This document shows, in pieces, positions 1-60,464 of a DNA stretch of 64,000 nt. The DNA is from a virus, in IMG/VR virus record IMGVR_UViG_3300026484_000394, positions 1-64,000 of that record. One strand, written 5' to 3'. The stretch's first letter is position 1; each line of letters starts with the position of its first letter. Both the position numbers and the translations under genes were made by a program. The notes under the pieces are model-generated. The model was given only the letters and a program-made list of their open reading frames with translations, had not been told where the DNA came from and ran no database searches.

Positions 1-258
1 TGTGCCTCTCAGGTCTAAATAATCGCCAACAGACAGGTTTTCAGGCAGTTCCGTGATGGCTGTGTGTTCTAGGTCTAAATAGTCGCCCACAGATAAATTT
101 TCAGGCAGTTTTGTGATAGCTGTGTCCCCTAAATACAAAGAGCCACTCACAGATAAATTCTCAGGCAGTTCCGTGATAGCTGTGTTTTCCAAGTCTAAAG
201 ACCCTTCTATTGCTAATCCTAATTTTGGGTTAAGTTTTCCATCTACTACTGTTTTCAT
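1..258 (-). CDS. LRR protein paralog 1 (N-terminal part; runs off the window edge)
   Basis: Not in the ORF track. ATG at 258 follows an AAGGAG RBS. Translates MKTVVDGKLNPKLGLAIEGSLDLENTAITELPENLSVSGSLYLGDTAITKLPENLSVGDYLDLEH..., nearly identical to the 546-1433 gene; frame open to position 1. Confidence 0.9.
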   Translation of the reverse strand, partial: MKTVVDGKLNPKLGLAIEGSLDLENTAITELPENLSVSGSLYLGDTAITKLPENLSVGDYLDLEHTAITELPENLSVGDYLDLRGT

Positions 259-307
259 ATTTTACTCCTTAAAGTTTTAGGCTATGAAACCTTTGCTGCT
301 CAACAGC
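259..307 (-). promoter_or_regulatory. Conserved leader copy 1 (hairpin + GGTTTCATAGCCTAAAAC + RBS)
   Basis: Minus strand reads GCTG-TTGAG-CAGC-AAAGGTTTCATAGCCTAAAACTTTAAGGAGTAAAATATG; near-identical copies at 1434-1483 and 2007-2057. Confidence 0.85.
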
Positions 308-334
308 TTATTTGCCTTGAATAAAGGCATCTTG

Positions 335-424
335 GATACTCAAATCATATACTACTTTCATCTGCTACTCAATTTTTTCTGAGTAGAATACTCTAGATTA
401 CTTATAGTATCTGATTTGAGTATC
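335..424. other. Long inverted repeat / branched stem-loop in spacer
   Basis: 20-bp arms at 335-354 and 405-424 (1 mismatch) enclose a 7-bp hairpin at 365-386 (CTACTCA/TGAGTAG); a further hairpin at 313-329. Confidence 0.7.
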
Positions 425-486
425 GTTTTTATCTGAGTTAGTTTTTAGTCTTACATAAAGCACAGGTAAAAAAAAGATATATTTTA

Positions 487-506
487 AAAGCCTCTTGATG
501 GGCTTT
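487..506 (-). terminator. Possible intrinsic terminator after the LRR gene
   Basis: AAAGCC...GGCTTT stem on the minus strand followed by T-rich sequence, about 40 nt after the stop at 546. Confidence 0.45.
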
Positions 507-545
507 GCTTCGTTTTACGCCCAGCTTGGCGAGAAGTCTAACTTG

Positions 546-1433
546 CTATTTTAACTCCTTTGCTTTGTCAAAGCATTCTCTAACCTTATTGATATAATCT
601 TCTGGGCTTGAATACTTCTTTTTAATACGAAATATTGCTTCTTCTTTAGTACCTCTAAAACATCCAATATGAATTATTGTTTTGTCTTTTAGGTCTAAGT
701 ATATAGCCCTATTATTGGAGCCACAATCATATACGACAGGGTAGTTTACGATGGCTGTGCCTTCCAGATACAGAAAGCCACCCACAGACAAGTTGTCAGG
801 TAATGATGTGATGGCTGTATCTCTTAGGTCTAAATAGTCACCCACAGACAAGCTTTCGGGTAGTTCTGTGATGGCTGTGCCTCTCAGGTCTAAATAATCG
901 CCAACAGACAGGTTTTCAGGCAGTTCCGTGATGGCTGTGTGTTCTAGGTCTAAATAGTCGCCCACAGATAAATTTTCAGGCAGTTTTGTGATAGCTGTGT
1001 CCACTAAATACAAAGAGCCCCCTACAGACAAGTTCTCAGGCAGTTCCGTGATAGCTGTACATCCTAAATTTAAAGAGCCTTCCACAGACAGGTTTTCAGG
1101 CAGTTCTGTGATGGCTGCACCTCCTAAATTTAAACAGCCACACACAGACAGACTTTCAGGCAGTTCCGTGATGGCTGTGCCTCTCAGGTCTAAATAATCG
1201 CCAACAGACAGGTTTTCAGGCAGTTCCGTGATGGCTGTGTGTTCTAGGTCTAAATAGTCGCCCACAGACAGGTTTTCAGGCAGTTCTGTGATGGCTGTGT
1301 TTTCTAAGTCTAAATAGCCTCCAATAGATAGGTTTTTAGGCAATTCTGTGATGGCTGTGTTTTCCAAGTCTAAAGACCCTTCTATTGCTAATCCTAATTT
1401 TGGGTTAAGTTTTCCATTTATAACTTTTTTCAT
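546..1433 (-). CDS. Leucine-rich repeat protein (10 full + 1 partial 20-aa LRR, C-terminal IGCF-type cap)
   Basis: Repeat xLxLxxTAITELPENLSVGx; C-terminal IHIGCFRGTKEEAIxxIKKKY cap; AAGGAG RBS. Confidence 0.92.
   Translation of the reverse strand: MKKVINGKLNPKLGLAIEGSLDLENTAITELPKNLSIGGYLDLENTAITELPENLSVGDYLDLEHTAITELPENLSVGDYLDLRGTAITELPESLSVCGCLNLGGAAITELPENLSVEGSLNLGCTAITELPENLSVGGSLYLVDTAITKLPENLSVGDYLDLEHTAITELPENLSVGDYLDLRGTAITELPESLSVGDYLDLRDTAITSLPDNLSVGGFLYLEGTAIVNYPVVYDCGSNNRAIYLDLKDKTIIHIGCFRGTKEEAIFRIKKKYSSPEDYINKVRECFDKAKELK
748..1380. repeat. 60-bp coding tandem repeat (LRR units)
   Basis: Period-60 repeats visible directly, e.g. cagacaggttttcaggcagttccgtgatggctgtg. Confidence 0.95.
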
Positions 1434-1483
1434 AATTTACTCCTTAAAAGTTTTAGGCTATGAAACCTTTGTCGCTCAACGAC
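1434..1483 (-). promoter_or_regulatory. Conserved leader copy 2
   Basis: GTCG-TTGAG-CGAC-AAAGGTTTCATAGCCTAAAACTTTTAAGGAGTAAATTATG. Confidence 0.85.
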
Positions 1484-1508
1484 TTGTTTGAGTCTTTCGA
1501 CCTCCTAA

Positions 1509-1577
1509 TTGTCTAAAAACAAAATACAAAAATATTCTCTTTTTAGACAAGATGCACAAGAAATAAATCTTGTGCAT
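1509..1577. other. Two adjacent stem-loops in spacer
   Basis: TTGTCTAAAAA/TTTTTAGACAA (1509-1550) and ATGCACAAGA/TCTTGTGCAT (1552-1577). Confidence 0.7.
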
Positions 1578-1583
1578 TATCTG

Positions 1584-2006
1584 CTAGTAGTGTTTTTTTT
1601 GAAAAGCTTTTGTTAGCTTTTCAGTTTTTGGTACTGTTGATTTAATTCCGTAAACAAGAGAGCAGATGATTGGAGTGTATAGCTCTAAAATGTCCCCCAT
1701 TAGTTTATAATAGTCTCCTGTAAAACTTTCAGACATTTCTAGTGCTATTTCCATACGTGCACCTTTTTTAGACAGCTGGTAAAAGAGTTGCCCCGTAATC
1801 GAGCCACTTTTAATTGGCAACGTGTCCGACTTAGTTCCACCAAGTGCTAATTTTATTTTGTCTAAAAAACTGATTTTTGATACATTTAACATTTTGCCAT
1901 TTGCAGCACCAAAGATTTCATTTATATTTTCAACAGCTGTATCTTGATATGTTGCAACTGATTTTAGTTCTGCTGCTGTAACAACTATAGTAGTTTGTAA
2001 TTTCAT
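1584..2006 (-). CDS. Hypothetical protein (140 aa)
   Basis: ORF with the same conserved leader and RBS as the LRR genes. Confidence 0.85.
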   Translation of the reverse strand: MKLQTTIVVTAAELKSVATYQDTAVENINEIFGAANGKMLNVSKISFLDKIKLALGGTKSDTLPIKSGSITGQLFYQLSKKGARMEIALEMSESFTGDYYKLMGDILELYTPIICSLVYGIKSTVPKTEKLTKAFQKKHY

Positions 2007-2057
2007 AATTTACTCCTTAAAAGTTTTAGGCTATGAAACCTTTGCTAATCAATAGCA
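2007..2057 (-). promoter_or_regulatory. Conserved leader copy 3
   Basis: TGCTA-TTGAT-TAGCA-AAGGTTTCATAGCCTAAAACTTTTAAGGAGTAAATTATG. Confidence 0.85.
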
Positions 2058-2088
2058 TTGTTGATCTCTTTTTACTTAAAGACACCTC

Positions 2089-2133
2089 TTACCCAAAGCA
2101 CAACACATATATAATATGTTCTGCTTAGGGTAA
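2089..2133. other. Long imperfect hairpin in the divergent intergenic region
   Basis: TTACCCAAAGCA/TGCTTAGGGTAA outer arms plus ACATAT/ATATGT inner arms. Confidence 0.65.
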
Positions 2134-2197
2134 ACATAAGATATATTCTCCTACATATATATATACCCTGTTTTCTCTAAAAAGTCCCACCCAGAAA

Positions 2198-2208
2198 TGT
2201 GCTATAAT
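2198..2208 (+). promoter_or_regulatory. Extended -10 promoter TGTGCTATAAT
   Basis: Perfect TRTGnTATAAT 26 nt before the HNH start; no TTGACA upstream. Confidence 0.75.
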
Positions 2209-2234
2209 TCACGATATTTATACAAGGACGAACG

Positions 2235-2531
2235 ATGAGCAAATGGAGAAATACTAGGGCATACCGAAAATGGAGGGCTCTTGTTATTCGTAGAGATGTC
2301 AAATGTGTTGTGTGCGGAAGCATGAAGAGAAGAAGTGCTCATCATAAGAATCATGCAACATACTTTCTCTCTCAAAGGTTTGATTTAGAGAATGGAGTAT
2401 GCTTGTGTGGTCAATGCCACATCCAGTTTCATTGCAACTATAAAAATTCAAGTAGAGAGAAATGCACAAAAAAAGATTTCAATAATTTTATGGACCTATG
2501 CGGGTATCTGAAATCAATAAACTCAAAGTAG
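2235..2531 (+). CDS. HNH endonuclease
   Basis: RD-x2-CVVCG ... AHH ... NGVCLCGQCH zinc-binding HNH signature. Confidence 0.9.
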   Translation: MSKWRNTRAYRKWRALVIRRDVKCVVCGSMKRRSAHHKNHATYFLSQRFDLENGVCLCGQCHIQFHCNYKNSSREKCTKKDFNNFMDLCGYLKSINSK

Positions 2532-2572
2532 TAATTAGGTATCATAAGCAAAAGATTTTCAAAGGAGATGTA

Positions 2573-3295
2573 GTGAGTAAGATACAAATATTACTTCGGG
2601 GATTACTTTCGTTGTTGTCGACTAAAAAAGTCAGTCATCAAAAAGAATTCGCCATGGTAAAAAAAGATGTCCCCACAAGTGCTATCCCAAAAATAAAAGT
2701 AGCATTAATTGTTGGGCACAGTCGAAAAAAGCAAGGAGCTGAAGGGTCAGCAGGAGAGTCTGAGTTTATGTTCTATAAAAATTTAGCTCCTGAGATTGTA
2801 AGTAGTTTTCATCAGAACCCAAGCCTACAAGGAAAGGTCCAAGTAAAAGTCTTTTTCAGGGATGAGACTGCGGGCTATGTTGGAGCAATGCATATTCTTC
2901 ACAAAGATATAGATACGTGGGGAGCTGACTTAAGTATATCGTTGCATTTCAATGCTGCACTGGACCCTTCTATAAATGGACACGAAGTCTTATACTGCAA
3001 TAATAGTTCGAGAGGGCACAAATATGCAAACTCCCTATGTAAAATTTTGCATGCAAAAATAGGTACGCAAAACAGAGGTCCACTAGCTAGAACGAAACAG
3101 AATAGAGGAGGCCAGTTCCTTTGCCTTGGAAAATCTGCATGTATTCTAATAGAGCCTTTTTTTGCAGCACACCAATTGGACTATATGCCAGGACATAGAA
3201 ACAGAGAACTACTTATAGCTTCTCTTTCTGAACTGGTACTTGAAGCTTGGGAAGAAGAAAAGGTTCCTAAACAACAGACTGAAGGAGAAGAGTAA
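2573..3295 (+). CDS. N-acetylmuramoyl-L-alanine amidase (Amidase_3 type endolysin)
   Basis: Zn/catalytic motifs VALIVGH, SE, SISLHFNA, ILIEPFF. Start moved to the GTG at 2573 behind AAAGGAG (track start 2498). Confidence 0.88.
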   Translation: MSKIQILLRGLLSLLSTKKVSHQKEFAMVKKDVPTSAIPKIKVALIVGHSRKKQGAEGSAGESEFMFYKNLAPEIVSSFHQNPSLQGKVQVKVFFRDETAGYVGAMHILHKDIDTWGADLSISLHFNAALDPSINGHEVLYCNNSSRGHKYANSLCKILHAKIGTQNRGPLARTKQNRGGQFLCLGKSACILIEPFFAAHQLDYMPGHRNRELLIASLSELVLEAWEEEKVPKQQTEGEE

Positions 3296-5481
3296 TGTCT
3301 GACTATATCGCAAATGGAGGGAAAGCACTCACTATTACCCCAGAGAATATTGAGAAAGTTACTTCTATACAGGCTAACGATGGAACTATAAATATTGTCA
3401 ATAGCTCCGATTCCGGGATGGTAGTGGAATTTGAAAAAAGTGCAGTAATATCAATTAAGTCATTCGGGCAAGTTAATGTTCGGGGAAAGATGATTACTAT
3501 AGGGAGTTCTGACGGAACAATAGAACAGGTGATTCCTCATTGGCAATCTGTTCATCCGATAAATGTAATTTGGGTTGAAGATGCTCCTGAAACGAATAGA
3601 TTTTCTCCGTGGTTCGGTATTAATCCTCAAGGTTCAGACTTAGCTGGATTTGAAGCATTTAGCACAGAGATAGAAGGGAGAGTTTTTAAATGGCAAGATG
3701 GAGATATCATTTTCTCAGATAGCGAAAGCTACTCTCAAATACCTGCAGATGGCTGTAAGATACAAGTTCCAAACATTATCTTTTCCACTGAAGACCCGTT
3801 TAGTTCAACTAAATATGCACGGCTAAGAAATGATGAAGGTGGAAGCCTAAATATATCTGGAGTCAGCTTTTCTGACTTTGGTGGTACATTCAGAGGATTG
3901 TCTCATTTGGATATTAGAGACACTGGTTTTTACGGTTCTACTTATATTCAGTACGGTCTTAAATTGAAACTATCTAATGTTTTCTCTGGAATGAGAGATA
4001 GTCTATCTAGTGGATTGAATATCAACTATTCATCCGACATCCTAGTTTCTGATGTAGGAGGTATTTCTTTTAAGAATAACGGACTCTCTATTACTCATTC
4101 TAAAGAAATAAATGGTTATCGACTGCTTGGAATAACAGTAAAAAGAGATTCTGCTAATGACAGTCCTGTTAGCCTAAAGACTGTACAGAACCTAAAAGTG
4201 ATAGGCATAGTTGCTTCTGGTGGGCAGTTCAGATTAGAGAATACGGCAAAAGTAAGAGTTTATGAAATTAGACTTTCTGACCAAGTTAGTGGAGAAGAGA
4301 ATAGTTCAACAGCTACCTCTAATATAGTAATTGACAATGCATCAGAGACATCTCTTCATCATGTGTCTGTCGTGAAAGAAGGTGGAGCTAAACTATCCTA
4401 CGCTTCTATCCGAAATTCATCTGACATAGATATCACTAAGATGAGCGTGAGAAGTTCATATGCGAACAATGTTATGACGGGCGATGTGTCTAGTAACCTG
4501 AGAATTTCAGAATTGTATTATGACGGCTTCAGTGGAGCAACTCCATTCTTTTTCCCTAGAAAAAACAACGGTCTTTTGTTGCAATCTGTAAGCTCAAAGG
4601 TTACACCTGATATAAAAATTGAAGCAATCAATACTGTCATTAAAGGTGTGCAGGCAAACCAAATCATTACTGATATTGATGGAATAGCTAACTGTAGCTT
4701 TGCTCAGATTTACACAGGAGAGAGCGAAGGAAAACTAGTATCAATAATGACAAAAGGGAGTGCTTCTTTCTCTAACATTTTAGGAAGACTAAAATGGTCC
4801 AATGATGCTAAGATGTATTTTGATCAAGAAGGTGATTCTATTGAGATAGAGATGCCATTTAATGTTAAAGGAGTTACTCTTCAGGATATAGAACCTGAAA
4901 TAGACGGAAGTAATATAGATGCTTTAGCGATAGATTATAGCCTCCATTCAGAAGAAGGATGGTCTTCTTTTAAAGGCTTTCATTCAGAACATTTACAAAA
5001 TGAAGTTATTGATACCAATAAGGGGTTCAGACTTAAGTTCAGAATTACGGCAGGAAGTATAGAAAAGAGTACTTGCATATCTACTATAACGCTTAATACC
5101 TACGATAAGAGGACGGTATATCCACTAGATACTGTTTCTGGTATTCTATCTTTTGAGGAAAATGCAGTTATTGATGACCATGCTAAATATTTCTTATTCT
5201 TCAAACAGGGCTATGGAACGCCCAATGCAGTGTTGGTTAAGGATGCTAATGGGCTGGATATTCAAGGACATGTCGATGGTCGCTCTGAGATTAGATTTGA
5301 ATATGATTTTGCAAATGATAATACTAATGGAAGAGAGCCAGGCTTTGATGTAGAAATGGTTTTAGTCCTTGCTGGGAGTAGCATAGCTTCTAGTCAAACT
5401 GTATCTCAAGAATTCAGAGATGGAATAATTAATATGTTTAGAATGAGAGCCTCTCGTGATAATGCATACAAAGGAGAATAG
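3295..5481 (+). CDS. Virion protein with parallel beta-helix-like repeats (tailspike/fibre-like)
   Basis: Central Asn/Ser/Ile-rich periodic strands (LNINYSSDILVSDV, SITHSKEING, IRNSSDIDIT); start overlaps the amidase stop. Confidence 0.5.
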   Translation: MSDYIANGGKALTITPENIEKVTSIQANDGTINIVNSSDSGMVVEFEKSAVISIKSFGQVNVRGKMITIGSSDGTIEQVIPHWQSVHPINVIWVEDAPETNRFSPWFGINPQGSDLAGFEAFSTEIEGRVFKWQDGDIIFSDSESYSQIPADGCKIQVPNIIFSTEDPFSSTKYARLRNDEGGSLNISGVSFSDFGGTFRGLSHLDIRDTGFYGSTYIQYGLKLKLSNVFSGMRDSLSSGLNINYSSDILVSDVGGISFKNNGLSITHSKEINGYRLLGITVKRDSANDSPVSLKTVQNLKVIGIVASGGQFRLENTAKVRVYEIRLSDQVSGEENSSTATSNIVIDNASETSLHHVSVVKEGGAKLSYASIRNSSDIDITKMSVRSSYANNVMTGDVSSNLRISELYYDGFSGATPFFFPRKNNGLLLQSVSSKVTPDIKIEAINTVIKGVQANQIITDIDGIANCSFAQIYTGESEGKLVSIMTKGSASFSNILGRLKWSNDAKMYFDQEGDSIEIEMPFNVKGVTLQDIEPEIDGSNIDALAIDYSLHSEEGWSSFKGFHSEHLQNEVIDTNKGFRLKFRITAGSIEKSTCISTITLNTYDKRTVYPLDTVSGILSFEENAVIDDHAKYFLFFKQGYGTPNAVLVKDANGLDIQGHVDGRSEIRFEYDFANDNTNGREPGFDVEMVLVLAGSSIASSQTVSQEFRDGIINMFRMRASRDNAYKGE

Positions 5482-14422: not shown

Positions 14423-14433
14423 TGTGATATAAT
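14423..14433 (+). promoter_or_regulatory. Extended -10 promoter TGTGATATAAT
   Basis: Intergenic, upstream of 14470 and the RNAP subunit gene. Confidence 0.75.
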
Positions 14434-15017: not shown

Positions 15018-16763
15018 ATGGACACTCTACAGGAACTCAATAAGCTTATGCCACAGGATATAAAGTTTAAGCAAAGTGATTTGCCTTTAACTAAGCCTAT
15101 TATAAAAGCTAAGCTGACTCGTTTTGCTAAAAAGTACCCATCGCTATATGCCAAAAATATTCACCAAATTGGAAATCTAGGAGAGGAATTAGCTTATCTC
15201 TCCGGACACAATATGGGGCTCGCTGACTTGAGACTAGGTAACCAAAAAAGTATTGATAAGAAGTTAGATGGAGAAGAGCTTAAAATGAGAGGAATGTCTA
15301 CTCTTCAAAAAAAGAAACATCTTCTCAATGCATTTAACCTAGCTCAGACTGAAGTGATGAAAAATACTGACAATAATCTTGTGTCTCAGGCCATATCTAA
15401 GGCTAGGGGAAACCCAGCTTCAGTAACAAGAACGGCTGGGGCGGTTGTCTATGCTGTAGATATGAACTCAGAGCCGTACCCATTTATGATAAAAAATTCG
15501 CTGGCCAAAGGACTTAGAGCACACGAGCAATATGCTTCTGGTGGGCAAGCCCGTTTTGCTGCCGTACAATCTGCTGTTTCTACATCTGAGCCAGGAGCTA
15601 TGGGAAAAGTGTTAATAGCTAACACGGAGCATCTTAAGATTGCTGAGAAAGATTGTGGTACCAGAAACGGAATTCCTCTGTCTCTGGATGGTACAGATGC
15701 AATAGATAGATATGAAGCAGGCACCAATAAGTTGATTACTCCACAATATTTGTCACAACTTAAAAAGAGGGGTAAAAAATCTATTATTGCTCGTTCACCT
15801 AGAACCTGTCAATCTACAAAAGGCATCTGTTCTATGTGTTTTGGCTTAAATGAAAAAGGGCATCTTCATTCTTCTGGGCATAATATCGGAATAGAAGCAT
15901 CAGAATCTGTTTCTGAAAAAGCTGTTCAGTTGGTATTAAATGCAAAGCACAATGTGTCTGGGAAAGCAGGGGGTTCAAGAATACCTACTGGATACCAAGC
16001 TGTAAAAACAGTTTTAAACTCTACGGAGACGTTTCCAGGTAAGGCAACGGTATCAACATTAAATGGGAGGGTGGATAAGATTACACCTCTTGCTACAGGT
16101 GGACATAATATAGAAATCTCAGGTCAAAACCATTTTGTGTCTCACGATGTCTCTCCAAAAGTTAAAATTGGCACTCAAGTAGATATGGGGGACATATTGT
16201 CTACTGGCATTGCTTCGACTAAAGACATGATGCAATACCGAGGTGTACAAGAGGCTAGAGCATACCTTTCTCATCAATTAGATAAAGCACACAATGGCTC
16301 TATTGACAACAGAAACTTCGAAGTAATTTCAAGAGGATATTTAGACTTAGTAAAGCCAAGAGGAATGCCAGGAACAACCAACTTGCATTCGTACGATACT
16401 TATGTACCAAGCTTATCTGGTACTCATGAATTAGTAATGAAGACATCAGATAAACAGCTGGTTAAAAAGCATCTAGCAGAACCTATATTGAATTACAGTC
16501 CAGGGAAACCTATTACAAAAGCTGTACAAAACAATCTCATTGACAGAGGTATCAAGTCGGTATTAGTGTCTCATACTGCGATGCCATACACCCCTGTGTT
16601 TAAAACATATGAACAGAAACCTCTATTTAATTCATCTCCGTGGCAAAGCATTAACTATCGTGGTATCAAAAAAGGAATTAAAGATGACCTTTTGATGGGG
16701 GAAAAAGAGGATGTAAGTAAGCTCAAATCAGATAGAGCTAAATTTACTCTTGGTATACTATGA
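15018..16763 (+). CDS. rpoC: Phage multisubunit RNA polymerase, beta-prime C-terminal half (RpoC2-like)
   Basis: SKARGN (SGARG); bridge helix ARFAAVQSAVSTSEPGAMGKVL...DCGT; Zn site RSPRTC...GICSMCFG; trigger loop GHNIGIEASESVSEKAVQLVLNAKH. No NADFDGD. Confidence 0.92.
   Translation: MDTLQELNKLMPQDIKFKQSDLPLTKPIIKAKLTRFAKKYPSLYAKNIHQIGNLGEELAYLSGHNMGLADLRLGNQKSIDKKLDGEELKMRGMSTLQKKKHLLNAFNLAQTEVMKNTDNNLVSQAISKARGNPASVTRTAGAVVYAVDMNSEPYPFMIKNSLAKGLRAHEQYASGGQARFAAVQSAVSTSEPGAMGKVLIANTEHLKIAEKDCGTRNGIPLSLDGTDAIDRYEAGTNKLITPQYLSQLKKRGKKSIIARSPRTCQSTKGICSMCFGLNEKGHLHSSGHNIGIEASESVSEKAVQLVLNAKHNVSGKAGGSRIPTGYQAVKTVLNSTETFPGKATVSTLNGRVDKITPLATGGHNIEISGQNHFVSHDVSPKVKIGTQVDMGDILSTGIASTKDMMQYRGVQEARAYLSHQLDKAHNGSIDNRNFEVISRGYLDLVKPRGMPGTTNLHSYDTYVPSLSGTHELVMKTSDKQLVKKHLAEPILNYSPGKPITKAVQNNLIDRGIKSVLVSHTAMPYTPVFKTYEQKPLFNSSPWQSINYRGIKKGIKDDLLMGEKEDVSKLKSDRAKFTLGIL
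16751..16759 (+). promoter_or_regulatory. Possible extended -10 (TGGTATACT) for the lysis cassette
   Basis: TGn + TATACT 35 nt before the holin start. Confidence 0.45.
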
Positions 16764-25675: not shown

Positions 25676-25686
25676 TATGATATAAT
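25676..25686 (+). promoter_or_regulatory. Extended -10 promoter TATGATATAAT
   Basis: Intergenic, 28 nt before the next ATG. Confidence 0.75.
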
Positions 25687-25714
25687 CTGTGTTAACTTTT
25701 AAACAGGAGTAAAT

Positions 25715-25918
25715 ATGGCAGATTATGATTTTACATCATGGAGTTGTTCTAAAATAGAGAGATTTTTAGAAGGAAAAAGAGTAGAGTGGTTTGTGGATAA
25801 TGTGAGCCTATCAGAATTGCAATTATTGAAAAGAAAACTATACGGCTGTAATAAAACTGTATATGCCAGAATGCAACGCTTCTTTGGATTGGCAGAGCAG
25901 AAAATAGCTAGGAGATGA
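25715..25918 (+). CDS. Hypothetical protein (67 aa)
   Basis: AGGAG RBS, own promoter. Confidence 0.75.
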   Translation: MADYDFTSWSCSKIERFLEGKRVEWFVDNVSLSELQLLKRKLYGCNKTVYARMQRFFGLAEQKIARR

Positions 25919-59761: not shown

Positions 59762-60464
59762 TCTTACAGGCACTAATATACTAACACCCACAGATTGTTC
59801 TAGCCAAGTAGTGGTAGTTTCAGGGAGAGAAATCACTGTTTGTTCAGGAAAAGGAGGGCAATCTTTTCTTGAAATCAACAATAGCGATTCTCAAGGGACA
59901 ATTCCTCATTTTTTAAGCAAGTCTGGAGACTATCTTGTTATTGAATATCTAGGTGCTTTTCCTGAAATTGACTACGGTACTATTGATGATAATAGATTTA
60001 GCTTTTTTAGAATAGCTCAGGTAAATAAAACCATGATGGAAATATCCTTTCGGCCTTCTACAGATAACGAAGAGGGCAATGTGTCTATCCCTTTTGAAAA
60101 AGCACTCCTTCCAAAATCAGAAGAGACACTTAATCGAATAGCAATCTTGATTTCTTCTACTGGGGATAACCTTCATTGTATACTAGCAACTCAAACAAAG
60201 CTATTTCATTTATACGGCTCTTCTCGCCAAGAGCAAGACTCTATTGCCGAGAGAGCTAATGTTCGGTTTAAGATTGGCAGCAAAAGCAAGATTTACAAGA
60301 TTTCTACTGGAACCTCAAAGTGTATTGGGTCGACAGCAGTCTCTGCTTTGCAAAATTCTTCGCTAGAGTTTCACGAAGTTGCACGGTTCAATTCAGCTTC
60401 AGAGAATCGTAGACTAGATATAATACAAGATCTAATTTTGGGAAATAAAAGGGTGTTTCAATGA
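59754..60464 (+). CDS. Hypothetical protein
   Basis: GGAGGAG RBS. Confidence 0.75.
   Translation: MTNLTGTNILTPTDCSSQVVVVSGREITVCSGKGGQSFLEINNSDSQGTIPHFLSKSGDYLVIEYLGAFPEIDYGTIDDNRFSFFRIAQVNKTMMEISFRPSTDNEEGNVSIPFEKALLPKSEETLNRIAILISSTGDNLHCILATQTKLFHLYGSSRQEQDSIAERANVRFKIGSKSKIYKISTGTSKCIGSTAVSALQNSSLEFHEVARFNSASENRRLDIIQDLILGNKRVFQ

Follow-up and report, generated by a model that had tools for sequence, protein, structure and literature searches.

The DNA considered here is the first 64,000 nucleotides (the window) of IMG/VR virus record IMGVR_UViG_3300026484_000394, a 97,197-bp contig (G000) of an uncultured phage from a deep-sea vent, about 52% complete according to CheckV. The left 2.2 kb of the window form a minus-strand arm of three genes, each with the same leader of about 50 nt upstream, and this repeated leader is the subject of the present analysis. 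Copy 1 stands before the 5′ part of a gene with leucine-rich repeats (LRR), which occupies positions 1–258 and runs off the contig end, and copy 2 before a second LRR gene of 295 aa (546–1433; Pfam LRR_14, 40.9 bits). Copy 3 precedes a gene of 140 aa (1584–2006) that belongs to no Pfam family, is unrelated to the LRR genes and is an orphan, its sole match in a search of 5.8 billion proteins being itself. An earlier reading, made from the sequence alone, had reported three hairpin-bearing minus-strand leaders before two related genes and an unrelated one. Leaders, hairpins and gene relationships were all recovered, the two related genes being LRR paralogs.

The core of the leader is a 24-mer, AAAGGTTTCATAGCCTAAAACTTT, which occurs exactly three times in the window, always on the minus strand (271–294, 1447–1470 and 2020–2043), never in shuffled versions of it, and nowhere else across the whole 97-kb contig. 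In the window copies it is preceded by a hairpin of 13 nt and followed by at most one T, the ribosome-binding motif AAGGAG, the spacer TAAA(A/T)T and the ATG. In copy 1 (256–307; covariance-model match of 87 bits), the hairpin GCTG-TTGAG-CAGC lies at 295–307, the AAGGAG ribosome site with its spacer at 259–270 and the ATG at 256–258. Copy 2 (1431–1483; 93 bits) has the hairpin GTCG-TTGAG-CGAC at 1471–1483, the ribosome site at 1434–1446 and the ATG at 1431–1433, and copy 3 (2004–2056; 88.6 bits) has GCTA-TTGAT-TAGC at 2044–2056, the ribosome site at 2007–2019 and the ATG at 2004–2006. Between the hairpin's 3′ foot and the ATG lie 36, 37 and 37 nt in copies 1 to 3, and 36–39 nt over all six copies known; this is close to, if not quite, the fixed 37–38 nt of the sequence-only reading.

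Three further copies come from related vent sequences. One lies at 102,072 (plus strand) of a 165-kb relative from a vent metagenome (G001, 88% complete), and its stem, GTCG/CGAC, repeats that of copy 2. The other two are GTCA-TTGAA-TGAC in a 4.7-kb contig that carries an array of LRR genes (L011), and GATG-TTAAT-CATC in a 2.8-kb contig (L018) that has nothing else in common with G000 or G001. All six copies have the invariant 24-mer, the ribosome-binding region and a 13-nt hairpin of the form G-NNN-TTRAN-N′N′N′-C, which amounts to about 38 invariant bases plus a hairpin conserved in structure only, and the leader heads four unrelated genes. The leaders of G000 and G001 are identical except for a longer T-run, and the best-conserved genes of the two phages reach just 65–81% DNA identity. 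No true copy beyond the six emerged from exact-pattern scans of viral contigs, of metagenome contigs and of 185,579 species genomes, from searches of both phage genomes with a covariance model based on the copies, or from blastn against GenBank phages. The remaining pattern matches are due to chance and lie mainly within coding DNA, and the species-genome collection holds neither a host copy nor a perfectly complementary 18-mer.

The stem of the hairpin differs among copies and stays paired, as the sequence-only reading had claimed for the window; the three outside copies all pair as well, and two of them add new stems. Five stems occur among the six copies (GCTG, GTCG, GCTA, GTCA and GATG). 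In a structural alignment of the six, all 24 stem cells of this helix 1 are Watson–Crick (100% paired), and three of the four pairs have changed on both sides. Doubly changed cells number 8, against 2.5 ± 1.4 in shuffles, and none of 500 shuffles reaches that number; when the partner columns are slid as a control, only 17–48% of cells pair. These differences require a minimum of four compensatory events, and two of these fall between positional orthologues. Copy 2 and the L011 copy have near-identical upstream flanks, yet carry the stems GTCG and GTCA, and copy 3 and the G001 copy, whose flanks are homologous (local alignment z = 6.1, 0/200 shuffles), carry GCTA and GTCG. Since all other flank pairs are unrelated, conservation begins sharply at the hairpin. 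The 24-mer is unchanged in all six copies, while the neighbouring stem, the T-run and the spacer after the Shine–Dalgarno (SD) motif all vary. This pattern amounts to strong purifying selection on the sequence of the 24-mer and to selection on the stem for pairing only. Chance is not credible as an explanation of the covariation, small as the sample is (six copies with five distinct stems, copies within one genome being non-independent). Helix 1 shows the hallmark of structured cis-regulatory RNAs in general, namely pairs kept by compensatory change.

As RNA, stem 1 is predicted to form with a pair probability of 0.79–1.0 in all six unrelated flanking contexts. In isolation, the hairpin folds more strongly as RNA (−1.5 to −4.2 kcal/mol) than as DNA (−1.0 to −2.4 kcal/mol). 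A second helix, AGGUU/AGCCU, can form in the middle of the leader with a pair probability of 0.2–0.94, and because its sequence is invariant, covariation cannot probe it. An antisense terminator on the plus strand was rejected, since its stem would not be strong enough and helix 2 has a C-A mismatch there in place of its U-G pair. A cmscan of positions 1–3000 against Rfam 15, with E-values up to 10, gave chance matches elsewhere and none on the leaders; at this level, the suspicion that the leader might belong to an already described RNA family is set aside. A pentamer complementary to the loop (TTCAA, CTCAA, ATCAA) lies 4–9 nt upstream of the window hairpins (312–322, 1488–1492 and 2061–2065, minus strand). 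In two copies it covaries with the base that ends the loop; it is absent from G001 and L018 and may be an alternative pairing or residual homology. An H-type pseudoknot between the loop and this upstream NTCAA was rejected, as its zero-length connecting loops are sterically impossible and NTCAA is missing from the same two sequences.

Several comparisons place the leader at junctions between otherwise different DNA. In L011, the flank found upstream of copy 2 leads into a ribosome site and gene of the copy 1 type. Copy 3 and the G001 copy have flank and leader in common and then continue into unrelated genes, the 140-aa orphan in one case and an open reading frame (ORF) of about 40 codons in the other, and the single G001 copy opens a long rightward block of small genes. 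In L018 (1660–1679, minus strand), the N-terminus of the copy 2 LRR protein is matched by the opening six codons (MKNVIN) of an unrelated membrane protein of 103 aa; because the similarity extends through six codons, the mosaic joint of this contig lies inside the coding region. Among sequencing runs that contain the stretch there is no RNA data set. The Logan contigs of two DNA runs break inside the repeats and offer one informative loose end, in a contig from a 2025 run that passes into other DNA at position 279, within the leader. Judging from these alignments, the leader marks recombination joints, much like the promoter early stem-loop elements (PeSLs) of T4-like phages.

The 3′ third of the leader recurs at a gene with a canonical promoter. 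The gene at 25,694 (plus strand; window 25,678–25,717) has the same AACTTTTAA and GGAGTAAAT followed by ATG, and its AACTTTTAA stretch starts 7 nt after a canonical TGATATAAT box. Because this gene uses it right behind TGATATAAT, the 3′ third of the leader behaves like a complete 5′ untranslated region (5′ UTR) with a ribosome site. Extended −10 boxes (TGnTATAAT) without a −35 element stand before many genes, for example on the plus strand of the window at 2200, 14425, 25678, 30339 and 44815. They lie 25–40 nt upstream of starts, including those of virion genes and of the gene for the C-terminal half of the polymerase subunit β′, and related boxes, several in number, occur in G001. The box nearest the arm, TGTGCTATAAT at 2198–2208 (plus strand), serves the divergent HNH-like and amidase genes and has the same motif as those at 14425, 25678 and 30339. 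No TGnTATAAT box, the ordinary promoter type of this phage, lies within the leader. Together with a G+C content of 33–37% and the vent origin, the extended −10 boxes tentatively suggest a host among the Campylobacterota.

The spacers of the arm contain no minus-strand TATAAT, as had been noted from the sequence alone, and offer TAAAAT-type hexamers only. Despite this absence, two stretches of the minus strand resemble promoters. A sigma70-like TTGAGT-N17-TATGAT at 344–372, read from 372 to 344, lies 37 nt upstream of the copy 1 hairpin; as a candidate promoter, it would make copy 1 part of a 5′ UTR. It is a consensus match only, in a region not enriched for such matches relative to shuffles. 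A block conserved with G001 (2137–2166), which starts about 100 nt 5′ of the copy 3 hairpin, carries a −10-like box of the GGTATATAT type. It belongs to the homologous flanks of copy 3 and the G001 copy, whose −10-like boxes read GGTATATAT and TGGCATATAT, and it is a candidate for the promoter of the minus-strand arm.

The phage encodes its own multisubunit RNA polymerase (RNAP) in two pieces. A protein of 1426 aa fuses β with the N-terminal half of β′ (L171:464-4744, minus strand; Pfam Rpb2_6, Rpb2_3, Rpb1_1 and Rpb1_2), and the C-terminal half of β′ is encoded separately at window positions 15018–16763 (Pfam Rpb1_5). The fusion has homologues over its full length in Salmonella phage Arash and in Vibrio phages D69, D148 and D181. 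Arash is the nearest cultured relative, and the β and β′ subunits and the sigma factor gp10 are among the proteins found in its virions (PMC10585845). A homologue of gp10 of about 200 aa, with Sigma70_r3 above the cut-off, is encoded at 78,723–79,331 of G000 (L281:1489-2097, plus strand), and another with the same domain above the cut-off at 59,834–60,454 of G001 (L279:1222-1842, plus strand). By analogy with Arash, this suggests a virion-packed, sigma-dependent multisubunit RNAP in the present phage. The T7-like RNAP family PF00940 had no match in G000 or G001, a result to be read with control genomes that were equally silent and two records that are both incomplete. Arash has a repeated box of its own, GGTATAAGTAA, analogous to TGnTATAAT. 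On the minus strand of its genome (OQ632216.1, 20–66 kb; L282), at least 11 copies of GGTATAAG(TAA) stand 20–35 nt upstream of ribosome sites and precede small genes and tRNA clusters; the repeated box is probably that phage's own promoter class.

The surroundings of the leader contain further small elements. Directly after the stop codon of an LRR gene, at 513–535 (minus strand), lies a second repeated small hairpin, CGCC-AAGCTG-GGCG-TAAAA, referred to here as the 3′ motif. It is found again at about 3933–3955 (minus strand) of L011, at 102572 and 103495 (plus strand) of G001 and at about 1186–1208 (minus strand) of L018, where the stem shows the compensatory change CGTC/GACG; one G001 copy has a stem of 5 bp. 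The 3′ motif closes several cassettes and is absent after the 140-aa gene. Like hairpin 2 of the leader, it runs into (T)AAAA(C), and it could be a 3′-end or processing signal. Searches of viral contigs with the 3′ motif and with the LRR protein as queries returned nothing related. The spacers upstream of the leader contain long hairpins of unrelated sequence in all six contexts, some of them terminator-like; before copy 2 there are two, at 1554–1575 and 1511–1548 (minus strand, together 1511–1575).

In L011 (1–3702, minus strand), five LRR paralogs form a tight array with a single leader in front, which shows that genes like the truncated one behind copy 1 run on as tandem arrays. The later genes start at an ATGA overlap with the preceding stop codon, and their ribosome sites are the conserved C-terminal ..EELK* codons of the preceding gene. 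The paired leaders at 134,750 and 135,823 of G001 reflect a tandem gene duplication only. An HNH-like ORF (2235–2531) followed by an Amidase_3 lysin adjoins the cassette arm in the window (2235–3295, plus strand), with a counterpart at 101,0xx–101,854 (plus strand) in G001. These genes are divergent from the arm in G000 and codirectional with it in G001, which indicates an inversion at the junction.

The repetition, invariance and covariation of the leader, its mosaic junctions and the 3′ part that it has in common with a gene behind a canonical promoter are best accounted for, at a probability of roughly 0.45, if the leader is a portable 5′-UTR RNA module that would combine a standard translation start, a recognition site for some factor and homology for cassette exchange. 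A stem in which nothing but pairing is conserved has to fold as a single strand, and RNA is the likelier medium because 4 bp cannot plausibly extrude from duplex DNA; with RNA as the medium, transcription has to start upstream of the hairpin. We therefore infer that the hairpin forms in RNA and that the start site lies 5′ of it. The leader would be transcribed within the mRNA, as a 5′ UTR or an intercistronic region, and would act post-transcriptionally. Its first part would be the 4-bp mini-hairpin, in which only pairing, the closing G-C pair and the UURAN loop are selected. The second part would be the invariant stretch of about 20 nt, able to form the small hairpin AGGUU/AGCCU. As this stretch is conserved base by base, it may be recognized by a specific trans-acting factor, speculatively a protein or the ribosome. 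The third part, AACUUU(U)AAGGAGUAAAnnAUG, would be a generic phage translation-initiation region. For an accessory gene plugged in behind the leader, the start of translation or the fate of the mRNA would thereby be standardized, independent of context and probably co-regulated. Cassettes may be exchanged at the leader, since the same 50 nt flank unrelated genes and so provide homology for recombination. The lone copy in G001 suits a gene-specific operator better than a promoter class. A processing or translation-control RNA was one of the options listed by the sequence-only reading, and it is the option that fits best, given a stem predicted in RNA in six of six contexts, a 3′ third that is a generic 5′ UTR and a −10-like block about 100 nt upstream.

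Several points weigh against a portable RNA leader. In L011, the hairpin is preceded at a distance of about 95 nt by a good intrinsic terminator (a C/G stem with T8 after it), and no canonical promoter was seen between this terminator and the five-gene LRR operon, which speaks for a promoter within the leader itself. The spacer before copy 2 likewise has no obvious promoter. The folding energy of the whole leader is no better than that of shuffles (z = −1.5 to +0.5), and the 24 stem cells include no G-U pair, so that nothing about the fold is specific to RNA. The number of known copies is only six. Finally, 24 invariant bases exceed the need of most RNA operators and resemble the promoters of phage RNAPs.

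The main alternative is that a phage-specific promoter lies inside the leader and is read by the phage's own multisubunit RNAP with a sigma-like or other specificity factor. The hairpin and GGTTTCATAGCC would then occupy the upstream and −10 positions, transcription would start near AAAAC or, following the analogy with phage N4, at the GG after the A-run, and the copies would be a few promoters heading a swappable accessory or early arm. This is a possible but doubtful explanation. It draws on the fused β–β′N, the β′C and the sigma-like protein encoded by the phage, all three of which are found in virions of Arash (PMC10585845), on terminator-like hairpins before the copies, most clearly in L011, where no canonical promoter follows, and on a stretch of about 24 bp perfectly conserved across diverged phages, as is typical of phage-RNAP promoters. 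In addition, GGTTTCAT is placed relative to AACTTTTAA exactly as TGATATAAT is at 25,694, and the single G001 copy heads its long rightward block. N4 virion-RNAP promoters are likewise few and clustered in one arm; their small hairpin tolerates different bases at some stem positions provided that these pair, a purine occupies the centre of the loop, and an A-run separates the hairpin from a possible G start (PMC4496689). However, a promoter hairpin would have to be extruded from DNA, which is very unlikely for 4 bp at −1 to −2.4 kcal/mol, and the covariation would be left unexplained. The hexamer at the −10 position, TTTCAT, lacks the A at −11 that sigma70-family factors require, and with the region 3 that it retains, the sigma-like protein is a better match for the abundant TGnTATAAT class; a GGTATAAGTAA class exists in Arash as well. 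One copy in the 165 kb of G001 is also few for a promoter. The hairpin promoter of the N4 kind suggested from the sequence alone does not hold up in its details. N4 hairpins have an extrudable stem of 5–7 bp that closes a loop of 3 nt, and their GC-rich core is centred at −11. Transcription starts about 8 nt downstream of the stem and depends on the hairpin; the enzyme, a giant single-subunit RNAP of the T7 type, reads the template strand with the help of gyrase and single-stranded-DNA-binding protein, and conservation is lost at +1 (PMC4496689). The leader, in contrast, has a 4-bp stem, a 5-nt loop, conservation over about 36 nt on to the ATG and a multisubunit RNAP; of the features of the N4 hairpin itself, only the central purine is in common. 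Early promoters of the φKZ/AR9 type, read by jumbo-phage virion RNAPs, are AT-rich sequences of about 10 nt near −10 that occur in many copies before many operons (PMC7598289), and the leader differs from them with its 24 nt of mixed composition, three copies in G000 and one in G001. A bolder variant, in which the mini-hairpin and 24-mer would be a structure-marked promoter for the virion-packaged, sigma-containing multisubunit RNAP, with the hairpin read in single-stranded DNA or nascent RNA and the early logic of N4 reinvented in the Arash-like lineage, is improbable.

Host transcription provides another possible explanation, that of a classical PeSL-type cassette in which the loop TTGA would be a −35 element within a stem-loop, TAAAAC 17–18 bp downstream a weak −10 element, and read-through would be attenuated. 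TTGAnn-N18-TAAAAC is indeed present (with N17 and TTAATC in L018), PeSL subclasses with a stem-loop over the −35 box have been described (PMC2839356), and the leader is intergenic, ends in SD and ATG, flanks orphan genes and marks mosaic junctions. Against this, the consensus match is 8/12 with a C for the essential T at −7, a promoter scan gives no call, the transcript start would fall inside the ribosome site, and a 4-bp stem without a U-run is no terminator. The other promoters of the phage are extended −10 boxes without −35, and an invariant spacer is unlike sigma70 promoters; such a cassette is very improbable. It is also very unlikely, although marginally less so, that the leader acts as DNA, with the 5′ hairpin and the 3′ motif CGCC-AAGCTG-GGCG-TAAAA as the ends of a mobile cassette that would fold as single strands for a recombinase or nuclease, as in integron attC sites or IS200/IS605 elements. 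Two different small hairpins with compensatory changes do bound cassettes, relatives differ in gene content at these points, and the HNH-like ORF (2235–2531) adjoins the arm. In the parts covered, however, no integrase, HUH transposase or TnpB lies beside the cassettes. The leader is also tied at fixed spacing to a start codon with its ribosome site and ends in a generic UTR that makes up its 3′ third; in addition, the stems are very short, and the 140-aa gene lacks the 3′ motif. Least probable of all is a decaying gene junction, the last codons of one gene and the ribosome site of the next, that spread with duplicated genes and whose hairpin has no function of its own. Its attraction is a site at 68,442–68,487 (plus strand) of G000, beyond the window (L172), which reads GGCTTCATA..AACTTTTAA..GAGGAG..ATG and joins the coding end (..GFINALTFKVEE*) of a 650-aa gene to the next ribosome site, the leader itself reading ..KGFIA* in frame. 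Yet four unrelated genes stand behind the leader, the 24-mer is unchanged where neighbouring positions vary, and pairing is kept in five stems. In addition, the G001 orthologue of the 68-kb junction keeps the protein with differing DNA, whereas the leader is 100% identical in G001. As an evolutionary source of the leader, the 68-kb junction is a possible one. Some other candidates were discarded: a sigma54 promoter (spacing GG-N7-GC, not N10), an upstream ORF (TTG..TAA, 8 codons) that lacks a ribosome site, whose synonymous sites are invariant and which is frameshifted in L018, and a trans-acting complementary RNA, for which the best non-self duplexes (−20 kcal/mol) are antisense to coding DNA and not common to G000 and G001. 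A hairpin of a diversity-generating retroelement was dropped because of its wrong position and because no reverse transcriptase was seen, and quasipalindrome correction by template switching because the arms are too short.

A portable RNA leader can be compared with several known systems. The leader works most like a PeSL, yet departs from that class in two defining respects. PeSLs of T4-type phages (RB49/φ1, T4/PST, KVP40/nt-1; PMC2839356, PMC4122927) are likewise short composite motifs between a stop codon and the next SD and ATG, with a stem-loop that varies in sequence among copies. They repeat before non-homologous, often orphan, accessory genes and lie at insertion or replacement junctions of related phages, where they are likely sites of recombination-mediated shuffling. 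The leader is also intergenic and ends in the SD and start codon of genes that include an orphan (the 140-aa gene), and its copies lie at insertion, deletion or replacement junctions (the L011 recombinant, copy 3 and G001, L018). In contrast to PeSLs, it has no strong internal sigma70 promoter (about TTGACA-N17-TATAAT), the best match being TTGAGC-N18-TAAAAC with 8/12 positions and no T at −7, and no terminator or attenuator stem-loop, as its 4-bp stem (−1.5 to −4.2 kcal/mol as RNA) is followed by AAAGG and not by a U-run. The PeSL-like cassette of the sequence-only reading therefore survives in its mosaic junctions and fails in its promoter and its terminator-grade stem-loop. The leader further has a conserved loop and an extra invariant 24-mer where PeSLs have a G/C-rich, terminator-grade stem-loop. 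It occurs in one to three or more copies per genome where PeSLs occur in dozens, and the phage that carries it comes from a vent, encodes a sigma-dependent multisubunit RNAP of its own and is not T4-like.

Phage translational operators and leader RNAs form a second group of analogues. These include the operators of T4 gene 43 and gene 32, the nut boxA/boxB elements of phage lambda and the 'epsilon' enhancer UUAACUUUA upstream of the SD of T7 gene 10. As in these systems, a small hairpin with a conserved loop adjoins a linear tract that is likewise conserved, and the ribosome site follows directly; the AACUUU(U)AA just 5′ of AAGGAG is similar to the T7 gene 10 enhancer. Unlike nutL and nutR, the leader has stems that differ within one phage, and one leader serves unrelated genes and not one autoregulated gene. 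The RNase III sites of T7 and T3 early genes are comparable in that structured spacers punctuate a series of genes with a ribosome site each, and long hairpins precede every leader. The repeated unit of the leader is, however, a 13-nt mini-hairpin, far too short for RNase III, and the long hairpins are unrelated in sequence.

Accessory genes are the fastest-changing part of phage genomes, and how new acquisitions are promptly expressed is poorly understood outside T4-like phages. The leader is a real feature and a compact variation on the regulatory cassettes of T4-like phages, in a little-known phage lineage. It forms a compact, sharply bounded 'socket' common to phages that are otherwise 20–35% diverged or unrelated in sequence. 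Whichever reading holds, it is small enough for direct work with reporter constructs. As an RNA operator, it would place a small group of plug-in genes under the control of some factor; as a promoter, it would set the specificity of sigma-dependent, virion-packed phage RNAPs, a class that has hardly been studied.

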